This document shows positions 61 to 16,919 of a stretch of 20,000 bases of DNA, piece after piece. Origin of the DNA: an uncultured virus (IMG/VR IMGVR_UViG_3300043419_000665) (taxonomy: Duplodnaviria > Heunggongvirae > Uroviricota > Caudoviricetes); IMG/VR virus record IMGVR_UViG_3300043419_000665, positions 53,785-73,784 of that record. One strand, given 5' to 3'. The translations under genes and the position numbers were made by a program. Under the pieces are notes generated by a model, which saw nothing but the letters and a program-made list of their open reading frames with translations, searched no databases and was not told the DNA's origin. The first letter of the stretch is position 1. Each line of letters starts with the position of its first letter.

Positions 61-142
61 ATAAGCCTTTCTTTAGTTATAATTGTATCACACTAAAATA
101 TTTATTATTTTTTAATATTTTAGTATATCTAGAATTTAATTA

Positions 143-1696
143 TTAGAAATTAGTTTCTATTTGATAACCATCATAAACTAGGAAGCGGTCTGTATAAAAC
201 ATATCATAAGGCTCACAGTTAATTGAAATAACTTCGTGAGGAGTGTATGATATTATCAACTCAGTGATAGGAACCCAAGAATTCGTGTCTGCAGACCATA
301 GTTCGTCTGTCTCCAAAAGATCTTCAGAGGCAATCATGCTAGAAACATTATCTCTTTTTGCAAGCATATAGTGAGTTCCTGAGTAATATTCGCCATTTAT
401 TCCAACAGAAACCTGTGCTGTTGATGTTCCTATTGCAACGATTGTTGTCTCTTTGTCAGGAATAGCAACAACATTTGTTGGAGTTTCTGTCCATGACTGA
501 ACATCTTGAACTGTAAAGTTTGATCCTAGTCCAGGGATTTCTGTAGAAACAAGAACATCTCCGACCTTAAGATTTTTTGCTTGAGTAAGCCCATCTACAG
601 TCAAAACTAATGTGTCTATGTTTACAGAGAAGTCAAAACTTCCTCCTGGAGAAAATCCGAATGCAGGAACAAATCCAAATGCTCCGAATGCACCGAATGC
701 TCCGAATGCACCGAATGGTGCAAAACCAAATGCTCCGAATGCACCGAATGCTCCGAATGCACCGAATGGTGCAAAACCAAATGCTCCGAATGCTCCGAAT
801 GCTCCGAATGGTGCGAATGAGAACACTGTTGTAACATTTCCTGATGCACCTGATGTTCCAGAACTTCCGTTTGCATTGTCTGCACGAACTGTGTATGTCT
901 GTGAACTTCCCTGTTCTTGAGATACGTTTACAGATGTTGACCCTGTATTTCCAGACTTACCGTCAGATGCTGCCCAGAAATAATTGGTGATAGCCTTACC
1001 GCCATTATTTGGTGCTGACCATGAGACAGAGTCAGTTCCTGCTGATGGTGATGATGCGGAAGGTGCACCTGGAGTTGCAGGTACTGTAGTTGCAGTAATA
1101 GCATTTGAAGCAGCAGATGTTGCTGAGTTTCCATTAGCATTAGTTGCTACTACTGTAAAAGTATAAGATGTTCCTGATTGAAGTCCTTGTACTGTAATTG
1201 GAAAACCATCAGTTCCAGTATAGCCACCAGAAGATGCTGTAGCAGTATAAACACTTACTGCTTTACCACCTGTAGCCCCTGCAGTATAACTAACTGTTGC
1301 TGCGCCGTTATTAAATGACCTACCTGTTCCAACATCTGTAGCAGTTACGCCAACTGGTGTTTGAGGAACAGTAGTAACTGTTACAGAATTAGATCCAGCA
1401 GATGTTGGGCCAACTCCTGAAGCGTTTGTTCCTGTTACTGTAAATGTTGGAGTTGCTCCTGAAGAAATTCCAGTTACAACAATTGGAGATGATGATCCTG
1501 TTGCTGATTGTCCAGTGCTTGCTGTTACAGTAAATGATGTTGCAGCGTTTGGACCTGTAGGAGTAAATGTCACTGATACAGCACCATTGTTAAATGGTCT
1601 TGCTGTTCCAACATCTGTTGCTGTACCTATTGTTGGTGCGTATGGAGTTAGGAAGTCATTTGCTCCCTGACTCATTCTACCTGCTTGCTTTGACAT
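143..1696 (-). CDS. Fibronectin type III repeat virion protein with (GAF)n low-complexity linker and C-terminal Hint (intein-like) domain
   Basis: Three FN3-like units (e.g. ITVQGLQSGTSYTFTVVATNANG); FAPFGAFGAF repeats; Hint-like block A SVNIDTLVLTVDGLTQAKNLKVGDVLVS, SGTH block B, block F/G-like VISINCEPYDMFYTDRFLVYD; GGGAG RBS. Confidence 0.8.
   Translation of the reverse strand: MSKQAGRMSQGANDFLTPYAPTIGTATDVGTARPFNNGAVSVTFTPTGPNAATSFTVTASTGQSATGSSSPIVVTGISSGATPTFTVTGTNASGVGPTSAGSNSVTVTTVPQTPVGVTATDVGTGRSFNNGAATVSYTAGATGGKAVSVYTATASSGGYTGTDGFPITVQGLQSGTSYTFTVVATNANGNSATSAASNAITATTVPATPGAPSASSPSAGTDSVSWSAPNNGGKAITNYFWAASDGKSGNTGSTSVNVSQEQGSSQTYTVRADNANGSSGTSGASGNVTTVFSFAPFGAFGAFGAFGFAPFGAFGAFGAFGAFGFAPFGAFGAFGAFGAFGFVPAFGFSPGGSFDFSVNIDTLVLTVDGLTQAKNLKVGDVLVSTEIPGLGSNFTVQDVQSWTETPTNVVAIPDKETTIVAIGTSTAQVSVGINGEYYSGTHYMLAKRDNVSSMIASEDLLETDELWSADTNSWVPITELIISYTPHEVISINCEPYDMFYTDRFLVYDGYQIETNF
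650..823 (-). repeat. Coding tandem repeat, 9-nt GAF unit inside a 51-nt (17 aa, FAPFGAFGAFGAFGAFG) unit
   Basis: Exact 51-nt copies at 675-725 and 726-776 plus a shorter third copy. Confidence 0.9.
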
Positions 1697-7943: not shown

Positions 7944-7991
7944 TGTCAGTAGACACCTACCAGGGTGTTATTGTTTTCTAAGGAGGAAACT

Positions 7992-8555
7992 ATGATTAAA
8001 TTTATCGAAAGAAACAAAGAGATCATTAGCACACTCAGTATCGTGGCACTTGTCAGTGTATTTTCTAATGCTGCTAATGCTACACCAGAACTAAGCACTA
8101 AAAATAACCTTAGCCTTGAACAGGCTCAGACATCGGACACAACCTCGAAAGAGGTTTTTTTGGTTTCTAAGGAAAAAATGTTGGAGAGTTTTGCAAACAA
8201 GACATCTCTTACTGATTTAGAACTAAAGAAGATGCTATCCCTAGTTGGCTTTAAGGGTCAAAACCTTGTTGAGGCTTGGGCTGTAGCAAAGAAAGAGTCT
8301 AATGGTCGACCATTGGCTTTTAACGGAAATGAAAGCACTGGAGACTCCTCATACGGAATTTTCCAGATCAATATGATTGACTCGCTTGGTCCTGATCGTA
8401 GAAACAAGTTTGAGTTATCTTCAAATGCCGAACTTTTTAATCCAGTTCTTAATGCACAGATTGCACATCATATGACTGACGGTGGAGAAAACTGGACTGC
8501 CTGGAAAGGCATGACTCCAAGAACTAAGTCTTGGATGTCTAAGTTTCCTAAGTAA
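7992..8555 (+). CDS. Secreted lysozyme-like lytic transglycosylase (SLT/Rpf-like fold)
   Basis: AAGGAGG RBS at 7980-86; hydrophobic signal ending ANA; AVAKKES catalytic Glu, SYGIFQIN, LFNPVLNA, WTAW motifs. Confidence 0.85.
   Translation: MIKFIERNKEIISTLSIVALVSVFSNAANATPELSTKNNLSLEQAQTSDTTSKEVFLVSKEKMLESFANKTSLTDLELKKMLSLVGFKGQNLVEAWAVAKKESNGRPLAFNGNESTGDSSYGIFQINMIDSLGPDRRNKFELSSNAELFNPVLNAQIAHHMTDGGENWTAWKGMTPRTKSWMSKFPK
8141..8161 (+). terminator. Terminator-like hairpin inside the transglycosylase CDS
   Basis: AACCTC-GAAA-GAGGTT followed by TTTTT. Confidence 0.45.
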
Positions 8556-8566
8556 ATTAAAGACTA

Positions 8567-8599
8567 TAAAAAGCCACCTGTTATAGGGTGGCTTTTTTA
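8567..8599. terminator. Bidirectional intrinsic terminator
   Basis: AAAAAGCCACC-tgttatag-GGTGGCTTTTT between convergent genes. Confidence 0.9.
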
Positions 8600-9556
8600 G
8601 TTTTTATATATTGGCTTTAAATAATCTTTTGATTCAAAATCAAGGTTCATTTCTTTTTGTAAAGCCCTATATTCCTCAACATGATTTTGTAATCCGTAAA
8701 CCCCAAGATCTTTTAAATGAAACAAACTGTTCAGTCTAAGCCTTGCAGATTTGTCCCTTAAATGCCAAGTTGTGTTGTCTTGCCAATGGAATCCGCCTCT
8801 TTTGCCATTATCTCTATCATAGTTTGTGTATATTGCATTTATTGCTGGTGCAACTAAATTAACACCTTGGACAGATAAACGAATCCCAAGACTTATCTCT
8901 TCTCCAAGAAAATATAAATATGGATCATAGGGTGCTTTCATAAACGACTTTACTGATCCAAAAGCAAAGTTTGCAGCAAAACCATAAACTTTATCTCCAT
9001 ACTCAAGATCCTCTATGTCATTCCATCTTAAAAGATAAACGAATTCTTCTTCATCCCACACAGCATCTACCTTATGCATAGATTCATTTTCTGTATTAAT
9101 AATATCTTTTGAGTTTCCGTTTTCATCCCACTCTTTTGTAAATCCATGTGGATATTTTGTAAATATGTAGTCTGTACCCCACTTTACAGAGCATTTAACA
9201 TATTCTAAAATTAACATTTCATCCCAATCCTGTTTTGCTCTTGAGTGAGAGTCTGTGTGAAGAAAGTATTTATATTTTTCTGATAAAAGAGAGTTTGCTA
9301 GGTGTCTTCCAGAGCATGCTCCGTCTGCTAATCTATAATCAATTTGCTGATAAGAAATTTGTTCAGATGGAATAAAAGAAAAATCAAAGTCTATTTCTTC
9401 TCCCTCGTGTGAAACTAAAGAAAAAAATAGCCTATCTTTATGTTTTGCTTTTTCATAAAAACTTTTAACTGTATTTATTAAATCTGGATCTCTATATCCA
9501 GCAAGGCTTACAAAAATTTTATCCATATCATTATCATCCATTTCTATTTCATCCAA
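8597..9556 (-). CDS. GT60-family (Gnt1-like) polypeptide GlcNAc transferase
   Basis: IFVSLAGYRD, FLHTDSHSR...WD (DSH motif), AANFAFG, PYDPYLYFLGEE match the Skp1 hydroxyproline GlcNAc-transferase family pattern. Confidence 0.8.
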   Translation of the reverse strand: MDEIEMDDNDMDKIFVSLAGYRDPDLINTVKSFYEKAKHKDRLFFSLVSHEGEEIDFDFSFIPSEQISYQQIDYRLADGACSGRHLANSLLSEKYKYFLHTDSHSRAKQDWDEMLILEYVKCSVKWGTDYIFTKYPHGFTKEWDENGNSKDIINTENESMHKVDAVWDEEEFVYLLRWNDIEDLEYGDKVYGFAANFAFGSVKSFMKAPYDPYLYFLGEEISLGIRLSVQGVNLVAPAINAIYTNYDRDNGKRGGFHWQDNTTWHLRDKSARLRLNSLFHLKDLGVYGLQNHVEEYRALQKEMNLDFESKDYLKPIYKN

Positions 9557-10149
9557 CTAACTACTGCATACCTTGTTCCATCCACAACCTCAGATACTGA
9601 ATGATTATAAACATAAGTTGATGGAAATATAATCATTTGATTGGCTTTTGGTTTAAAAGTTATATCAAAGCGAGGAAAATTAATTTCTCCTCCTGTATAG
9701 TTATCATTTAAATAGTAAACTGTAGACATCCTCCTGTGATAAGATGGATGATCGTCAATATGGTTTAAAAAGTGCTGACCTTTTCCATATTTTAGAATAC
9801 CGTACATGTCGTGCCACTCATGGACTACACCAAAAGAACTTTCATAATCTTTTTCAAGTGGGTCAAAATGTTGAAAAAATATATTGTTTAAATTTGTAAA
9901 AAATGCATCAGAAAAATTTGTTGCTTCTAATTCTACAACTCCACCAAGATACTGAACTCCAACAGTCTGTGTATCTCTTATTTTAGGATTTTTCATTGAA
10001 TCTTCACCTACCCCTGATTTTACCCTAGCCTCGTTCCAACTCAGTCCCGCTGAAGCCAAACCTTCTTCTATATCGTTATACAAGTTTTTACTGTCAGGAA
10101 TAACATCGCTATATACAATTATTCCTGGGGCAATCTCTTCTTTTATCAT
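9544..10149 (-). CDS. Prolyl 4-hydroxylase-like 2OG-Fe(II) oxygenase
   Basis: LKY..GQHFLNHID (HxD), STVYYLNDNYTGGEINFP, FPS..YNHSVSEV..GTRYAVVSW (distal His, Arg). Confidence 0.85.
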   Translation of the reverse strand: MIKEEIAPGIIVYSDVIPDSKNLYNDIEEGLASAGLSWNEARVKSGVGEDSMKNPKIRDTQTVGVQYLGGVVELEATNFSDAFFTNLNNIFFQHFDPLEKDYESSFGVVHEWHDMYGILKYGKGQHFLNHIDDHPSYHRRMSTVYYLNDNYTGGEINFPRFDITFKPKANQMIIFPSTYVYNHSVSEVVDGTRYAVVSWMK

Positions 10150-10150
10150 T

Positions 10151-10396
10151 TTACCATTTTCCTAAAGGACATGTTGCCTTTTGTAGTTTAGTTTTTGCAG
10201 ACATAAAGCAACCACATTTTTTGCATTGTGTTGTTAGTTTGATTAATTCTGGACATGACTTACAAATAGAGTACCTAGATGAAGATAAGCCCTCATCTGC
10301 CCATTCTGTATTTGGATTAACTAAATCTAAAGGACTAACAGAAGAGTTTTTATTATTTTCAATTATTTCTTTAATTTTTTCTATCCTGCTAGCCAT
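10151..10396 (-). CDS. Small Cys-rich putative Zn-binding protein (DUF6171-like)
   Basis: R..IC..C...QCKKCGCF..AK......CPLGKW; own TGGTAGAAT -10 at 10422-30. Confidence 0.75.
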   Translation of the reverse strand: MASRIEKIKEIIENNKNSSVSPLDLVNPNTEWADEGLSSSRYSICKSCPELIKLTTQCKKCGCFMSAKTKLQKATCPLGKW

Positions 10397-10435
10397 TTTT
10401 TCCCTATCTCTTGTAACAACAATTCTACCACAAAA

Positions 10436-12442
10436 CTAAGCCTCAGTTAAACCACCAGGGCTTGGTGCGGGTGCAGGTGCTGGTGCGGGTGCTGGTGCGG
10501 GTGCTGGTGCGGGTGCAGGTGCAGGTGCAGGTGCTGGTGCGGGTGCTGGTGCGGGTGCTGGTGCTGGTGCGGGTGCTGGTGCTGGTGCGGGTGCTGGTGT
10601 TGGAGACGATCCTTGTGCTGGTGGGCAGTAGTCACCTACACATATGTATTCTCCATAACCAGCACAATAGAATGTTTGACATGGTGCAGGTGTTGGCGTT
10701 GGTGTTGGAGTTGGTGTTGGAGTTGGTGTTGGTGTTGGTGTTGGTGTTGGTGTTGGTGTTGGTGTTGGTGTTGGTGCGGGTGCTGGTGCGGGTGCTGGTG
10801 CTGGTGTTGGTGCAGGGCATTGACAAATACCATTACAGTCTATTGTACCTAAACATCCATCTGGACCTGGGCATGATTGTCCTTGGTTTGGACTACAAGG
10901 TGTTGGTGTTGGGGTCGGTGTAGGTGTTGGGGTAGGTGTTGGGGTCGGTGTAGGTGTTGGGGTCGGTGTAGGTGTTGGGGTAGGTGTTGGGGTAGGTGTT
11001 GGGGTAGGGGTAGGTGTAGGGGTAGGGGTAGGTGTTGGGGTAGGTGTAGGGGTAGGGGTAGGTGTTGGGGTAGGGGTAGGTGTTGGAGTACAACCCTGTG
11101 GAGTTGTGGTAATTCCTCCAGTTATGCCACCACCTTCTCCTGAGCAATCAGAATTTGCAAGTGAAAGTGCTTCTGCCTGTGTTCCACCACTTACCGAACC
11201 GCTAGAACCAGAAGCGCAGCACCAGTAGTAGGTTGGAACAGGCGTTGGCGTAGGTGTTGGAGTAGGTGTTGGTGTTGGTGTTGGAGTAGGTGTAGGTGTT
11301 GGTGTTGGTGTGCAACTTTGTGGAGATGTATAAATTTCTCCAGTGATTCCACCAGCATCTCCTGAACAGTTAGAGTTTGCAAGAGCAAGGGCTTGGGCCT
11401 GTGTTCCACCACTTACCGAACTGCCAGATCCATCAGCGCAGCACCAGTAGTAAGTTGGAACAGGCGTTGGTGTTGGAGTAGGCGTTGGTGTTGGTGTTGG
11501 TGTTGGTGTTGGTGTAGGCGTTGGTGTTGGTGTTGGAGTTGGTGTTGGAGTTGGTGTTGGAGTTGGAGTAGGTGTTGGAGTTGGAGTAGGTGAAGGAGTT
11601 GGAGTAGGTGAAGGAGTAGGTGTAGGGGTAGGAGTTGGAGTCGGTGTTGGCGTTGGTGTTGGTGTTGGTGTTGGTGTTGGTGTTGGCGTTGGTGTTGGTG
11701 TTGGTGTTGGAGTAGGTGAAGATGCACCTTCATAAATATCTCCATAAGCAATCCAAGAATTTGCTGCAACCTTTAGTAAGGTTACTTGTCCATATTGTTC
11801 ATCAATAAACATTTGTCCATTTTTGCTATTAATTGTTACGCCTGATGCTGGAACAAAAGTTGTGACTCCTGATCCAATTTCAATTAAGTTGTATCTGTAT
11901 CCAACTGGAATTGCTATTGAAGAATTTGACGGTACAGTTAAAATCATTGTTGAAGAAGTATTAAGAAGAATAGTCTTGCTAACATCAAGTGGATCCAATG
12001 TAAAACCAGTTGTCTTTGTTATAACTGTTCCAACATTTAAAATTTGTGGTTCAACATCAAATCTTTCATCACTAGAGTTCCAGTCAAGTCCTGTTCCAGC
12101 AAGATCTGAATAAGCCCCTGTTGCGCCATCGATAGCGCTACTAATTGCTGAATTAACATACTGTGTTGTTGCAAGATTTGCTGTATTTGCTATGCCGTGG
12201 ACATTTTGTGTTAATGCAGCATGTGTAGAGTCTGCATTGGCTAAAGTTTTAAGGTGTCCTGCAACTGATTTTGTATTGATTCCGTTTGCTGTTCCAAGAT
12301 TATTATCTGTTGGTATTACTGTTGATCCATAATGGTAAAGTCTTAAGGCTTCCTGAATATCTGCTGCATCTTCATAGCCAGGTATCTTGGTTGGGTATAA
12401 CCCAGAGCCATTTTCCGTATCATCAATAAATTCAGCAGCCAT
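10436..12442 (-). CDS. Virion fibre with extended (PT)n/(PA)n stalks and Cys-rich modules
   Basis: N-terminal ~240 aa shares HGIANT and GTGLDWN...RFD motifs with the 717-aa fibre; remainder is PT/PA tracts punctuated by Cys modules. Confidence 0.8.
10460..11717 (-). repeat. Coding CCA-ACA / CCA-GCA hexamer repeats (PT, PA) with duplicated ~50-aa Cys module
   Basis: GGTGTT/GGTGCT arrays with synonymous wobble variation; [30 protein letters not shown] twice. Confidence 0.9.
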
Positions 12443-15954: not shown

Positions 15955-16725
15955 ATGAAAACAGACATACTTGACACGCTGGAGTATTCCAAGAATTTGA
16001 TTATATCCCCCGACATGGATGGTTTTATGACCGCAAAATTATTGGAGCGTTTTAACGGTTCGAAAATAGTGGGTTCGTACGACAAAAACATCTTGTGTCT
16101 CGCCGACGGGATCAATCCAGAAGAATGCTTGTTCGTCGATTGCGATATGAATCGACAAGAGTATGTTTCACTCGGAAATCATATGCGCTTACTTGAAGAC
16201 AATATGTCAGTCGAGTCGTTTAACCCAAATGTTCATTTCGGCGTGACGACATATACTGACAAGTTCCCTTATGCAACCGCTTTTTTGATTTCGTTCGCAA
16301 CAGAGGTTCAAACCTCCGACTCTGACCTTATACGCATGGCTTTCGCTGACTCAACTCTAAGAAATATGGAGAAGTACAGCGATAACATGCGAAATTGGTC
16401 TACACGGATGGATCATCCTGCAGTAAAGTACATAACAGACAATTCGGACATTGCAAAAAGAAATGATGCACAAGCAAGGTTTGATTATGTTGATCAATCA
16501 TTTACATCTAAACGTTATGGCAAGGAAAGATATTTAGATACCCTAAACAATGCCCTAGCAGGCCAGGAGATGGCTTTTGAGCCACTAGTCCAGGGTATGA
16601 AGTACATGTGCGACAAAGTTGGTATCAATACCGTCATAAGGTATAATAGAGATATAGTGTCATATGCAGAAATATTCGGAGGCGAGTATTCGGTTACATA
16701 TGATCAAGAGGTGGAATGGAAGTGA
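15955..16725 (+). CDS. DHH-like phosphoesterase (divergent)
   Basis: LIISPDMDG (DxDG), LFVDCD, LGNH, AFADST; no intact DHH triad. Confidence 0.45.
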   Translation: MKTDILDTLEYSKNLIISPDMDGFMTAKLLERFNGSKIVGSYDKNILCLADGINPEECLFVDCDMNRQEYVSLGNHMRLLEDNMSVESFNPNVHFGVTTYTDKFPYATAFLISFATEVQTSDSDLIRMAFADSTLRNMEKYSDNMRNWSTRMDHPAVKYITDNSDIAKRNDAQARFDYVDQSFTSKRYGKERYLDTLNNALAGQEMAFEPLVQGMKYMCDKVGINTVIRYNRDIVSYAEIFGGEYSVTYDQEVEWK

Positions 16726-16919
16726 GTGATGTTACATTTGGTGACTTGTTTGATCCTAATCAACCAAGATCAAATCGTGAACTCATTGAGTCCCGCCTAA
16801 AAATATGTAATGAATGTGAGTGGTTTAAAAAATCACTTCAGAAGTGCAGAAAGTGTGGATGTTTTATGAAATTAAAAACCACATTACAAGAAGCAAAATG
16901 TCCTATGGAGAAATGGTGA
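16716..16919 (+). CDS. Small Cys-rich protein, paralog of 10151-10396
   Basis: RLKICNEC...KCRKCGCFMKLKTTLQEAKCPMEKW; alternative GTG start at 16722 with GAGGTGG RBS. Confidence 0.75.
   Translation: MEVSDVTFGDLFDPNQPRSNRELIESRLKICNECEWFKKSLQKCRKCGCFMKLKTTLQEAKCPMEKW

Follow-up and report, generated by a model that had tools for sequence, protein, structure and literature searches.

The gene and its surroundings

The window, which is the whole stretch of 20,000 nucleotides analysed here, belongs to a 73.8-kb virus record (G000, 67% complete) of an uncultured, freshwater-type phage. Near its left edge, a 517-aa ORF is the last gene of a tail-fibre/structural block, whose upstream members match the Mtd_N, tail-fibre and collagen families. 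The features considered are as follows.

143..1696, minus strand: the 517-aa ORF, with three FN3 domains, a Phe-rich repeat, a Ser1 Hint domain and an 8-aa tail
1367..1645, minus strand: FN3-like domain 1 (aa ~18-110), its approximate bounds taken from internal repetition
1085..1366, minus strand: FN3-like domain 2 (aa ~111-204), with the best Pfam fn3 stretch at aa 167-198
827..1084, minus strand: FN3-like domain 3 (aa ~205-290), where the family profile matches FN3 structures
647..826, minus strand: Phe/Gly/Ala low-complexity repeat (aa 291-350), delimited by composition
629..631, minus strand: Phe356, the -1 residue, which is Lys in GNAT-linked relatives
170..628, minus strand: Hint domain (aa 357-509, 153 residues), starting at Ser357 (nt 628-626); residues of interest are Ser357 (1), Ser439 (B7), His442 (B10), Ser491 (~F4), Asp498 (~F13), Tyr508 and Asp509 (G7)
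146..169, minus strand: 8-residue tail after the Hint domain, starting with Gly510, with no +1 nucleophile
61..142, no strand: 82-nt spacer, which in the nearest relatives measures ~960 nt and holds a GNAT-fold gene and a 138-aa gene
from nt 60 off the left edge: DUF6065-like gene (genome 53131-53844)
10436..12442, minus strand: PT/PA-repeat protein, without a Hint domain in the window

The FN3 segment boundaries were set by eye, and Pfam finds fn3 in the 517-aa protein with an E-value of 2e-8. GAF triplets occur 11 times in the repeat, whose 60 residues are 21 Phe, 15 Gly, 15 Ala, 5 Pro, 2 Val and 2 Ser; at the DNA level it is built of a 51-nt unit present in 2.8 copies with 97% matches. The 17-aa repeat unit was duplicated recently. 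An initial annotation of this DNA had placed a repeat of ~60 aa directly before the Hint domain; the composition was as described, but a six-residue linker (aa 351-356) separates the two. An artefact or a wrong reading frame was ruled out, as the family is large and conserved and has a high-confidence fold. The gene position and the matches of the homologues suggest a virion protein, and the window protein itself has no direct match naming one.

The genes that follow the Hint gene, across and beyond the left edge of the window, are the DUF6065-like gene and then a ribonucleotide reductase. The initial annotation had suggested looking in this direction for modifying enzymes; these two genes are all that was met there, and the evidence for such enzymes is thin in this phage. 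Elsewhere in G000 (67% complete), no second Hint, GNAT or 138-aa gene was found at E<0.05. A second record of 98.6 kb (G001, 90% complete) has a Hint domain identical to that of the window and carries a WhiB gene, a marker of actinobacterial hosts. Inside the structural block of the window, an SLT_3 (lysozyme-like) gene lies on the opposite strand (7965-8555, plus strand), a position kept in L021. Two small Cys-rich proteins, at 10151-10396 (minus strand, DUF6171) and 16716-16919 (plus strand), have similar CxxC patterns.

Fold and active site of the Hint domain

Neither Pfam nor PHROGs recognized the isolated Hint part. An AlphaFold2 model of aa 335-517, built on 99 sequences and with a mean pLDDT of 85.6, matched BIL domains, many inteins and the Hedgehog Hint with Z-scores from 17.2 to ~12, and the best non-Hint row had a Z of 2.7. 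The closest structure was BIL2 (Z 17.2, rmsd 2.3, 140 aligned), and the C. thermocellum BIL gave a Z of 16.9 (rmsd 1.8, 130 aligned). In several matches, model residues 23..175 (Ser357..Asp509) cover the intein from residue 1 to the last residue, and Foldseek agrees with the Hint fold. On this model, aa 357-509 is confirmed as a true Hint fold with its junction residues in register. The initial annotation had proposed such a fold for aa 357-517, pending an AlphaFold model, and had read a start at Ser357 (nt 628), SxxH in block B and YD in place of HN; all of this holds, the last two being S439-x-x-H442 and Y508-D509, the latter followed by G510.

A search with aa 285-517 returned 198 proteins, of which the best 120 were used; together with the query, these 121 rows comprise 85 Cys-start Hints, 35 Ser-start Hints and one protein that is not a Hint. 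Among the matches listed, 78 of the 85 Cys-start rows end in His-Asn and 70 have Gln at B10, a substitution frequent enough to show that unusual active sites are tolerated in this family. Among the same matches, 34 of the 35 Ser-start rows are complete, and all of them have His-B10 and a terminal Asp. A larger set was drawn from 330 fetched loci (partly redundant), which gave 317 complete Hints and 129 clusters at 90% identity; three clusters with less than 600 nt of downstream DNA were dropped and three were split by label, leaving 129 rows (120 Ser, 9 Cys). The whole family amounts to 565 clusters at 50% identity, with E-values up to 0.001. No match came from a tblastn search of 50,697 deposited phage records. 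In the species genomes of GTDB, the one match (28 residues, E 5e-5) had an unrelated context and was disregarded.

The initial annotation had made its reading depend on a Hint fold and on the conservation of Ser and His in homologues; besides the fold, we found Ser1 and His-B10 to be invariant (120/120 Ser1 rows each). B7 is Ser or Thr in 116 of these rows; 116 rows end the Hint with Asp, and the other 4 with Glu. G6 is His in 39/120 and G7 is never Asn (0/120), and the +1 residue varies, being Ser or Thr in 54/120. At the inferred F4 position, 107 of the 120 rows have Ser, with a conserved Cys494 three residues on; the F-block register (~F4, ~F13) was obtained by counting back from the C-terminus and not by superposition. 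His442 is the only near-invariant His column. From position 1 to block B, His never reaches more than 12 of the 120 rows in any column, and a conserved motif-NX His is absent. The tail after the Hint differs in length and sequence among relatives. The window Hint retains all 24 positions that are conserved at 85% or more in the Ser1 rows, and pairwise comparison with 11 relatives gave dN of 0.19-0.41 versus dS of 0.65-1.1.

Class 1 inteins have Cys or Ser at position 1 and Thr/Ser-x-x-His in block B, and inteins ending in Asp exist, as passages of PMC4031507 describe. The N-terminal features are found in the window Hint (Ser357; Ser439-x-x-His442). At the other end, class 1 inteins carry a penultimate His, a terminal Asn (seldom Gln or Asp) and Cys, Ser or Thr at +1. 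Its Ser start, called non-canonical in the initial annotation, is in fact canonical in class 1; the unusual part is the C-terminal motif Tyr508-Asp509-Gly510, in which Asp is a known variant and Gly at +1 is no nucleophile. The block F helpers of class 1 (F4 mostly Asp, F13 mostly His) correspond in the inferred register to Ser491 and Asp498, and the F4 Cys of class 3 inteins falls, in the same inferred register, on the column that is mostly Ser. Nor does the domain sit between the exteins of a conserved host protein; it caps the C-terminus of a variable repeat protein, and 8 residues of tail follow it. An (R/K)-His in motif NX was critical in the Ser1 inteins tested, according to part of PMC10189870. 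Two Ser1 inteins, Aes123 PolB1 (9hth) and PolB16 OarG (8cpo), share with the window Hint Ser1 with its oxyester chemistry (predicted for the window), Ser/Thr-x-x-His and the fold (Z 15.6 and 9.4); however, they have the NX His, a terminal His-Asn, Ser/Thr at +1 and a conserved host gene, none of which is found for the window Hint. Splicing is unlikely, because in the window Hint the +1 residue is Gly, neither G6 nor ~F13 is His, ~F4 is Ser and the motif-NX His is missing; it is these traits in combination that are unusual. The initial annotation had likewise denied it a splicing capacity, and the domain has neither the splicing residues nor a nucleophile at +1. The N-terminal chemistry seems to be kept in a form not yet described.

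BIL domains are stand-alone Hints in hypervariable regions of non-conserved proteins (excerpts of PMC7765530), and the window family is placed in the same manner. Like the C. thermocellum BIL (2lwy) and the Tetrahymena BUBL1 BIL2 (6tmm, 6y75; Z 16.9-17.2), the window Hint is minimal and endonuclease-free and has no +1 nucleophile. BIL domains, however, have Cys1 and end in His-Asn, whereas the window Hint has Ser1, ends in Tyr-Asp and forms the last domain of a phage repeat protein; the window protein also has no counterpart of the ubiquitin-like domains that are ligated by BIL2. The Pfam family Hint_2 was matched weakly by 21 of 99 family members (best E 2e-4) and PT-HINT by 2 of 99, and the window protein matched neither. 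The Hedgehog Hint (1at0, Z 15.7) is a C-terminal Hint that releases its N-terminal product without splicing, a release that is predicted here. It differs in its sterol-recognition region and Cys143 (Hedgehog features from portions of PMC12054796), compared with an 8-aa tail, Gly510 at +1 and Ser1 in the window Hint. The window domain is thus a member of the Hint superfamily that differs from class 1, Ser1-NX and class 3 inteins and from Hedgehog. The best viral structural matches are UniProt entries of uncultured Caudovirales, such as A0A6J5NYB8, A0A6J5NY54 and A0A6J7WKC1 (E 3e-13 to 2e-12), which probably belong to the same family; their labels ('Fibronectin type III', 'PASTA', 'Hint domain containing') are automatic and name no mechanism, Ser/Asp subclass or GNAT link.

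Two further observations concern the Hints of this family. In the Cys-type Hints of L346, L350, L351, L353, L354 and L361, some 25 residues are inserted a short way behind Cys1. Two Hints of the family lie 3.7 kb apart in one record (G008:C1:46532-46990 and 50209-50685), and other contigs likewise turn up twice among the matches.

Interchangeable caps and the predicted cleavage

When homologues were collected by the FN3 trunk, 101 new proteins were found, of which 52 have a Hint and ~27 (by eye) end free in the repeat. In two of the 101 (P0332 and P0338), a Peptidase_S74 domain directly follows the repeat (E 1.7e-10 and 5.8e-13); no match to this family (PF13884) was found in the window protein. 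For 80 loci chosen by trunk, there were 79 complete trunk ORFs with 58 distinct C-termini. After six misregistered Cys rows had been re-read, 16 of the 58 have no cap (a frameshift may explain one of them), 23 end in a Cys-Hint and 19 in a Ser-Hint. The capless genes have the same gene context and similar downstream genes. S74 detaches autoproteolytically and aids the folding of low-complexity fibre proteins, as described in part of PMC7824862. Its fold and chemistry are unrelated to those of the Hint, although it takes the Hint's place behind the shared trunk and repeat and is a self-detaching cap, as the Hint is predicted to be. Because the same trunk and repeat end in a Cys-Hint, in Peptidase_S74 or in nothing, a self-removing cap is the likeliest role of the domain. 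The simplest reading of these sequences is that the mature product would be the trunk with a free repeat, the Hint being a removable cap. A collagen-like Gly-X-Y repeat was considered and is not general, many relatives having five-residue or Pro-rich repeats, and aromatic residues make up less than 20% of the stretch before the junction in 37 of 129 rows. In P0287, P0329 and P0340, a short Cys-rich peptide ends the repeat in place of a Hint or S74 cap.

The cassette may also move within genomes. Orthologues of the window PT protein end in a Ser1 Hint in L021 and L279, and probably in the truncated L278 (L021:3814-6483, L279:1868-4516, L278:1-593). L279 has a GAF repeat there as well, which suggests that one gene of a phage passed a copy of the repeat and Hint cassette to another. 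The initial annotation had drawn a parallel with the PT protein, and this holds, as relatives carry the same Hint on this protein and some also have the GAF repeat. Behind the PT/PA-repeat gene of the window come genes for DUF6171, a 2OG-Fe(II) oxygenase and a GlcNAc-type glycosyltransferase (8597-12442 for the whole group, minus strand); it is plausible that the latter three form a hydroxylation and glycosylation set for Pro/Thr repeats.

We think it probable that the 517-aa protein is a phage fibre or decoration precursor with a self-cleaving Hint cap, which would form an oxyester at Phe356/Ser357 and be released by hydrolysis after having masked the repeat. The three FN3 domains would be the stalk, the aromatic low-complexity repeat the tip and the Hint the removable C-terminal cap, a BIL-like domain that would keep the first half of the intein chemistry only. 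Ser357 would attack the Phe356 carbonyl, assisted by Ser439 and His442 and probably by Asp509 and Asp498 too. Hydrolysis of the oxyester would let the cap leave, and the Phe-rich repeat would become a free C-terminus. Until assembly, the cap probably masks the sticky repeat or maintains its solubility, as S74 is thought to do; this chaperone role is suggested only by the analogy with S74. By the same kind of analogy, the domain would work like an N-cleaving Hint of the BIL or Hedgehog type, placed where fibres often carry S74. Adhesion to a hydrophobic host surface and self-association are our guesses for the exposed repeat. Against cleavage, the helpers of working Ser1 inteins are absent (the NX His; Asp at ~F4, where Ser stands), and the window Hint may cleave slowly or not at all.

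That last point leads to an alternative in which the Hint is a non-cleaving or very slow scaffold on the fibre, or a dock that recruits GNAT and 2OG oxygenases to the repeat in the manner of a RiPP follower. The missing NX His, F4 Asp and F13 His would fit, and so would the Cys-type relatives, mostly without His-B10, and the tailoring-type genes that come after the Hint gene in most relatives. However, a passive domain would not need a Ser1 and a His-B10 that are invariant in 120/120 rows, and the same slot is used by the self-cleaving S74. The capless relatives, with similar downstream genes, argue that the enzymes need no Hint as a dock. We therefore regard the scaffold or dock as unlikely and continue with the self-cleaving cap. 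Hint domains beyond inteins and Hedgehog are poorly understood, and the window family is large. A cysteine-independent Ser1/His/Asp site without the helpers of Ser1 inteins could be a new route by which an oxyester leads to autocleavage, and is a candidate for use as a self-cleaving tag.

The junction lysine and the GNAT-fold neighbour

A gene of 165-183 aa lies right after the Hint gene in 46 of the 58 first loci. The evidence for the fold of its product is weak but concordant: Pfam gave GNAT with E 0.04-0.09, Foldseek a best E of 0.029, and the Atlas 0.95; a model (pLDDT 65.7) had a best Z of 7.4 (rmsd 3.6, 104 aligned), with nearly all of the 50 rows being acetyl- or acyltransferases. A motif-A-like stretch contains an invariant Arg. 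The product is predicted to be a GNAT-fold protein with an acyl-CoA-type motif A and a putative acyltransferase, and the motif and the Arg point to an ordinary acyl-CoA as donor.

The occurrence of this gene was surveyed among the genes near Hints and by whole-record searches of selected records. Of the 120 Ser rows, 49 combine Lys(-1) with an adjacent GNAT, 66 have neither, four have Lys without a scored adjacent GNAT and one has GNAT without Lys(-1). Lys stands at -1 in 49 of the 50 rows with an adjacent GNAT, the exception being L213, with Ile at -1 and Lys at -2. In two of the four Lys rows, a GNAT is present but overlaps (L288) or lies one gene further (L212); the other two (L174, L278) are second Hint copies on the PT protein and on fragments, and the GNAT profile found none on those two fragments. 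None of the nine Cys rows has an adjacent GNAT. The entropy at -1 is 0.14 bits in the 50 GNAT-adjacent rows versus 3.08 bits in the 70 rows without, whereas -2 and -3 vary in both groups (3.2-3.3 bits in the GNAT-adjacent rows). The trunk-selected set has some members in common with the first; in it, a GNAT follows 7/7 Lys-Ser Hints and 0/51 others. When whole records were searched with the GNAT profile, it was found in 3/3 Lys records and in 0/10 non-Lys records, including G000 and G001 (eight of the ten are at least 90% complete).

All GNAT rows fall in one clade of the Hint tree (support 0.83 and 0.92 in two trees, which rest on about 160-240 residues). With the two PT copies excluded and L212 and L288 counted as GNAT-bearing, the tree has five Lys losses and four GNAT losses, and 4/4 GNAT losses coincide with a Lys loss. 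The Lys-loss branches account for 14.6% of the branch length, which gives a rough p of 5e-4 (3e-3 for the three clean cases). In the tree of the DUF6065-like gene, three lineages without GNAT (the window, L023/L024 and L181/L182) each have their own place among the Lys/GNAT phages, and their spacers of 51-122 nt versus ~960 nt in relatives fit deletions. The 138-aa gene was lost with GNAT in the three clean deletions, and those cases cannot separate the two genes. On the trees, Lys and GNAT appear to have been lost together four times, and the window phage is one of the cases, with Phe356 at -1 and no GNAT in either its own record or that of G001.

It could be argued that this pattern reflects shared ancestry and linkage only, without any function. 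GNAT has a single origin on the Hint tree, and the fourth joint loss (L187/L233) may be a transfer of the Hint into another phage background. But Lys is fixed at -1 across Hints with an identity of just 33-83%, in which -2 and -3 are free to change, and each of the four GNAT losses lies in the small share of branch length where Lys was lost, which makes linkage alone a rather improbable explanation. The residue-level coupling of Lys(-1) and GNAT and their repeated joint loss are, as read from these sequences, new here: in the literature consulted, mostly open-access main texts, we met no description of the FN3/repeat/Hint architecture or of a link between Hint and GNAT. The coupling leads to a sharp prediction of which residue is modified and by which enzyme, and nature provides controls in the window phage, which has no enzyme, and in the relatives without any cap.

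In the preferred reading, the ancestral form of the subclade has Lys at -1 and a neighbouring gene for a GNAT-fold enzyme, which most likely acylates that Lys; the window phage has lost the GNAT gene and carries Phe in place of Lys. Going further, we tentatively propose, at somewhat less than even chance, that the Ser1/His/Asp Hint, the junction Lys and the GNAT work together as a two-component device for tailoring the C-termini of surface proteins in phages. The acyl group, possibly long-chain, would gate self-cleavage, for example by keeping the epsilon-amine off the oxyester, and/or would leave an acyl-Lys at the end of the aromatic repeat. Lineages that lose the GNAT would replace Lys, often by an aromatic residue, and the window phage would be such a lineage. 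The initial annotation had taken the tail as a possible substrate of enzymes encoded downstream; this suits the relatives better than the window phage, which has neither the GNAT-fold nor the 138-aa gene. If true, the device would be a case of enzyme-controlled Hint autoprocessing, none of which was found in the literature consulted, again mostly open-access main texts.

Alternatively, the ester may be resolved by a specific nucleophile, with the repeat being coupled to a lipid, glycan, amine or virion protein and the GNAT-fold protein perhaps delivering the acceptor. A dedicated partner gene that co-evolves with the -1 residue would suit this, and some GNAT-fold enzymes take aminoacyl oxyesters as donors. 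Further, BIL2, the closest structure, forms isopeptide bonds to lysine (part of PMC8616854). However, the window protein has no sterol-recognition-like region and has Gly at +1, compared with the essential Cys143 of Hedgehog (portions of PMC12054796); 16 of the 58 trunk relatives are capless, the window phage has no partner gene, and the acyl-CoA-type motif and invariant Arg of the partner suggest an ordinary acyl-CoA donor. We find such coupling quite improbable. The initial annotation had offered exposure or covalent coupling of the Phe-rich tail as outcomes of autoprocessing: exposure by N-terminal cleavage is likely, whereas an obligatory coupling in the Hedgehog style is unsupported, because only eight residues follow the Hint, no sterol-recognition-like region is present and +1 is Gly. 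An atypical intein, joining the repeat to the short tail by splicing or C-cleavage through Asp cyclisation, is very improbable, since the window has Gly at +1, Tyr at G6 and Asp at the F13 position and the tails vary in length and sequence, even though Asp-ending inteins exist (passages of PMC4031507) and 54/120 Ser1 rows have Ser or Thr at +1.

With the self-cleaving cap as the preferred reading, the analysis suggests that adhesion fibres of these phages are matured by swappable caps and tailoring enzymes, and it hints at an undescribed way to finish phage surface proteins. Other gene sets were seen next to FN3 genes and Hints of this family. In L060-L066 and L334-L337, two or three tandem paralogues of ~215-235 aa follow Cys-type or capless FN3 genes, and the one tested matches no Pfam family. 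In L050-L058, Ser1 Hints with Tyr or Glu at -1 come after His/Tyr/Gly/Phe repeats, and downstream of them lie two DUF6065-like genes, a gene for a small ferredoxin and a gene of 241-249 aa that belongs to no known family.
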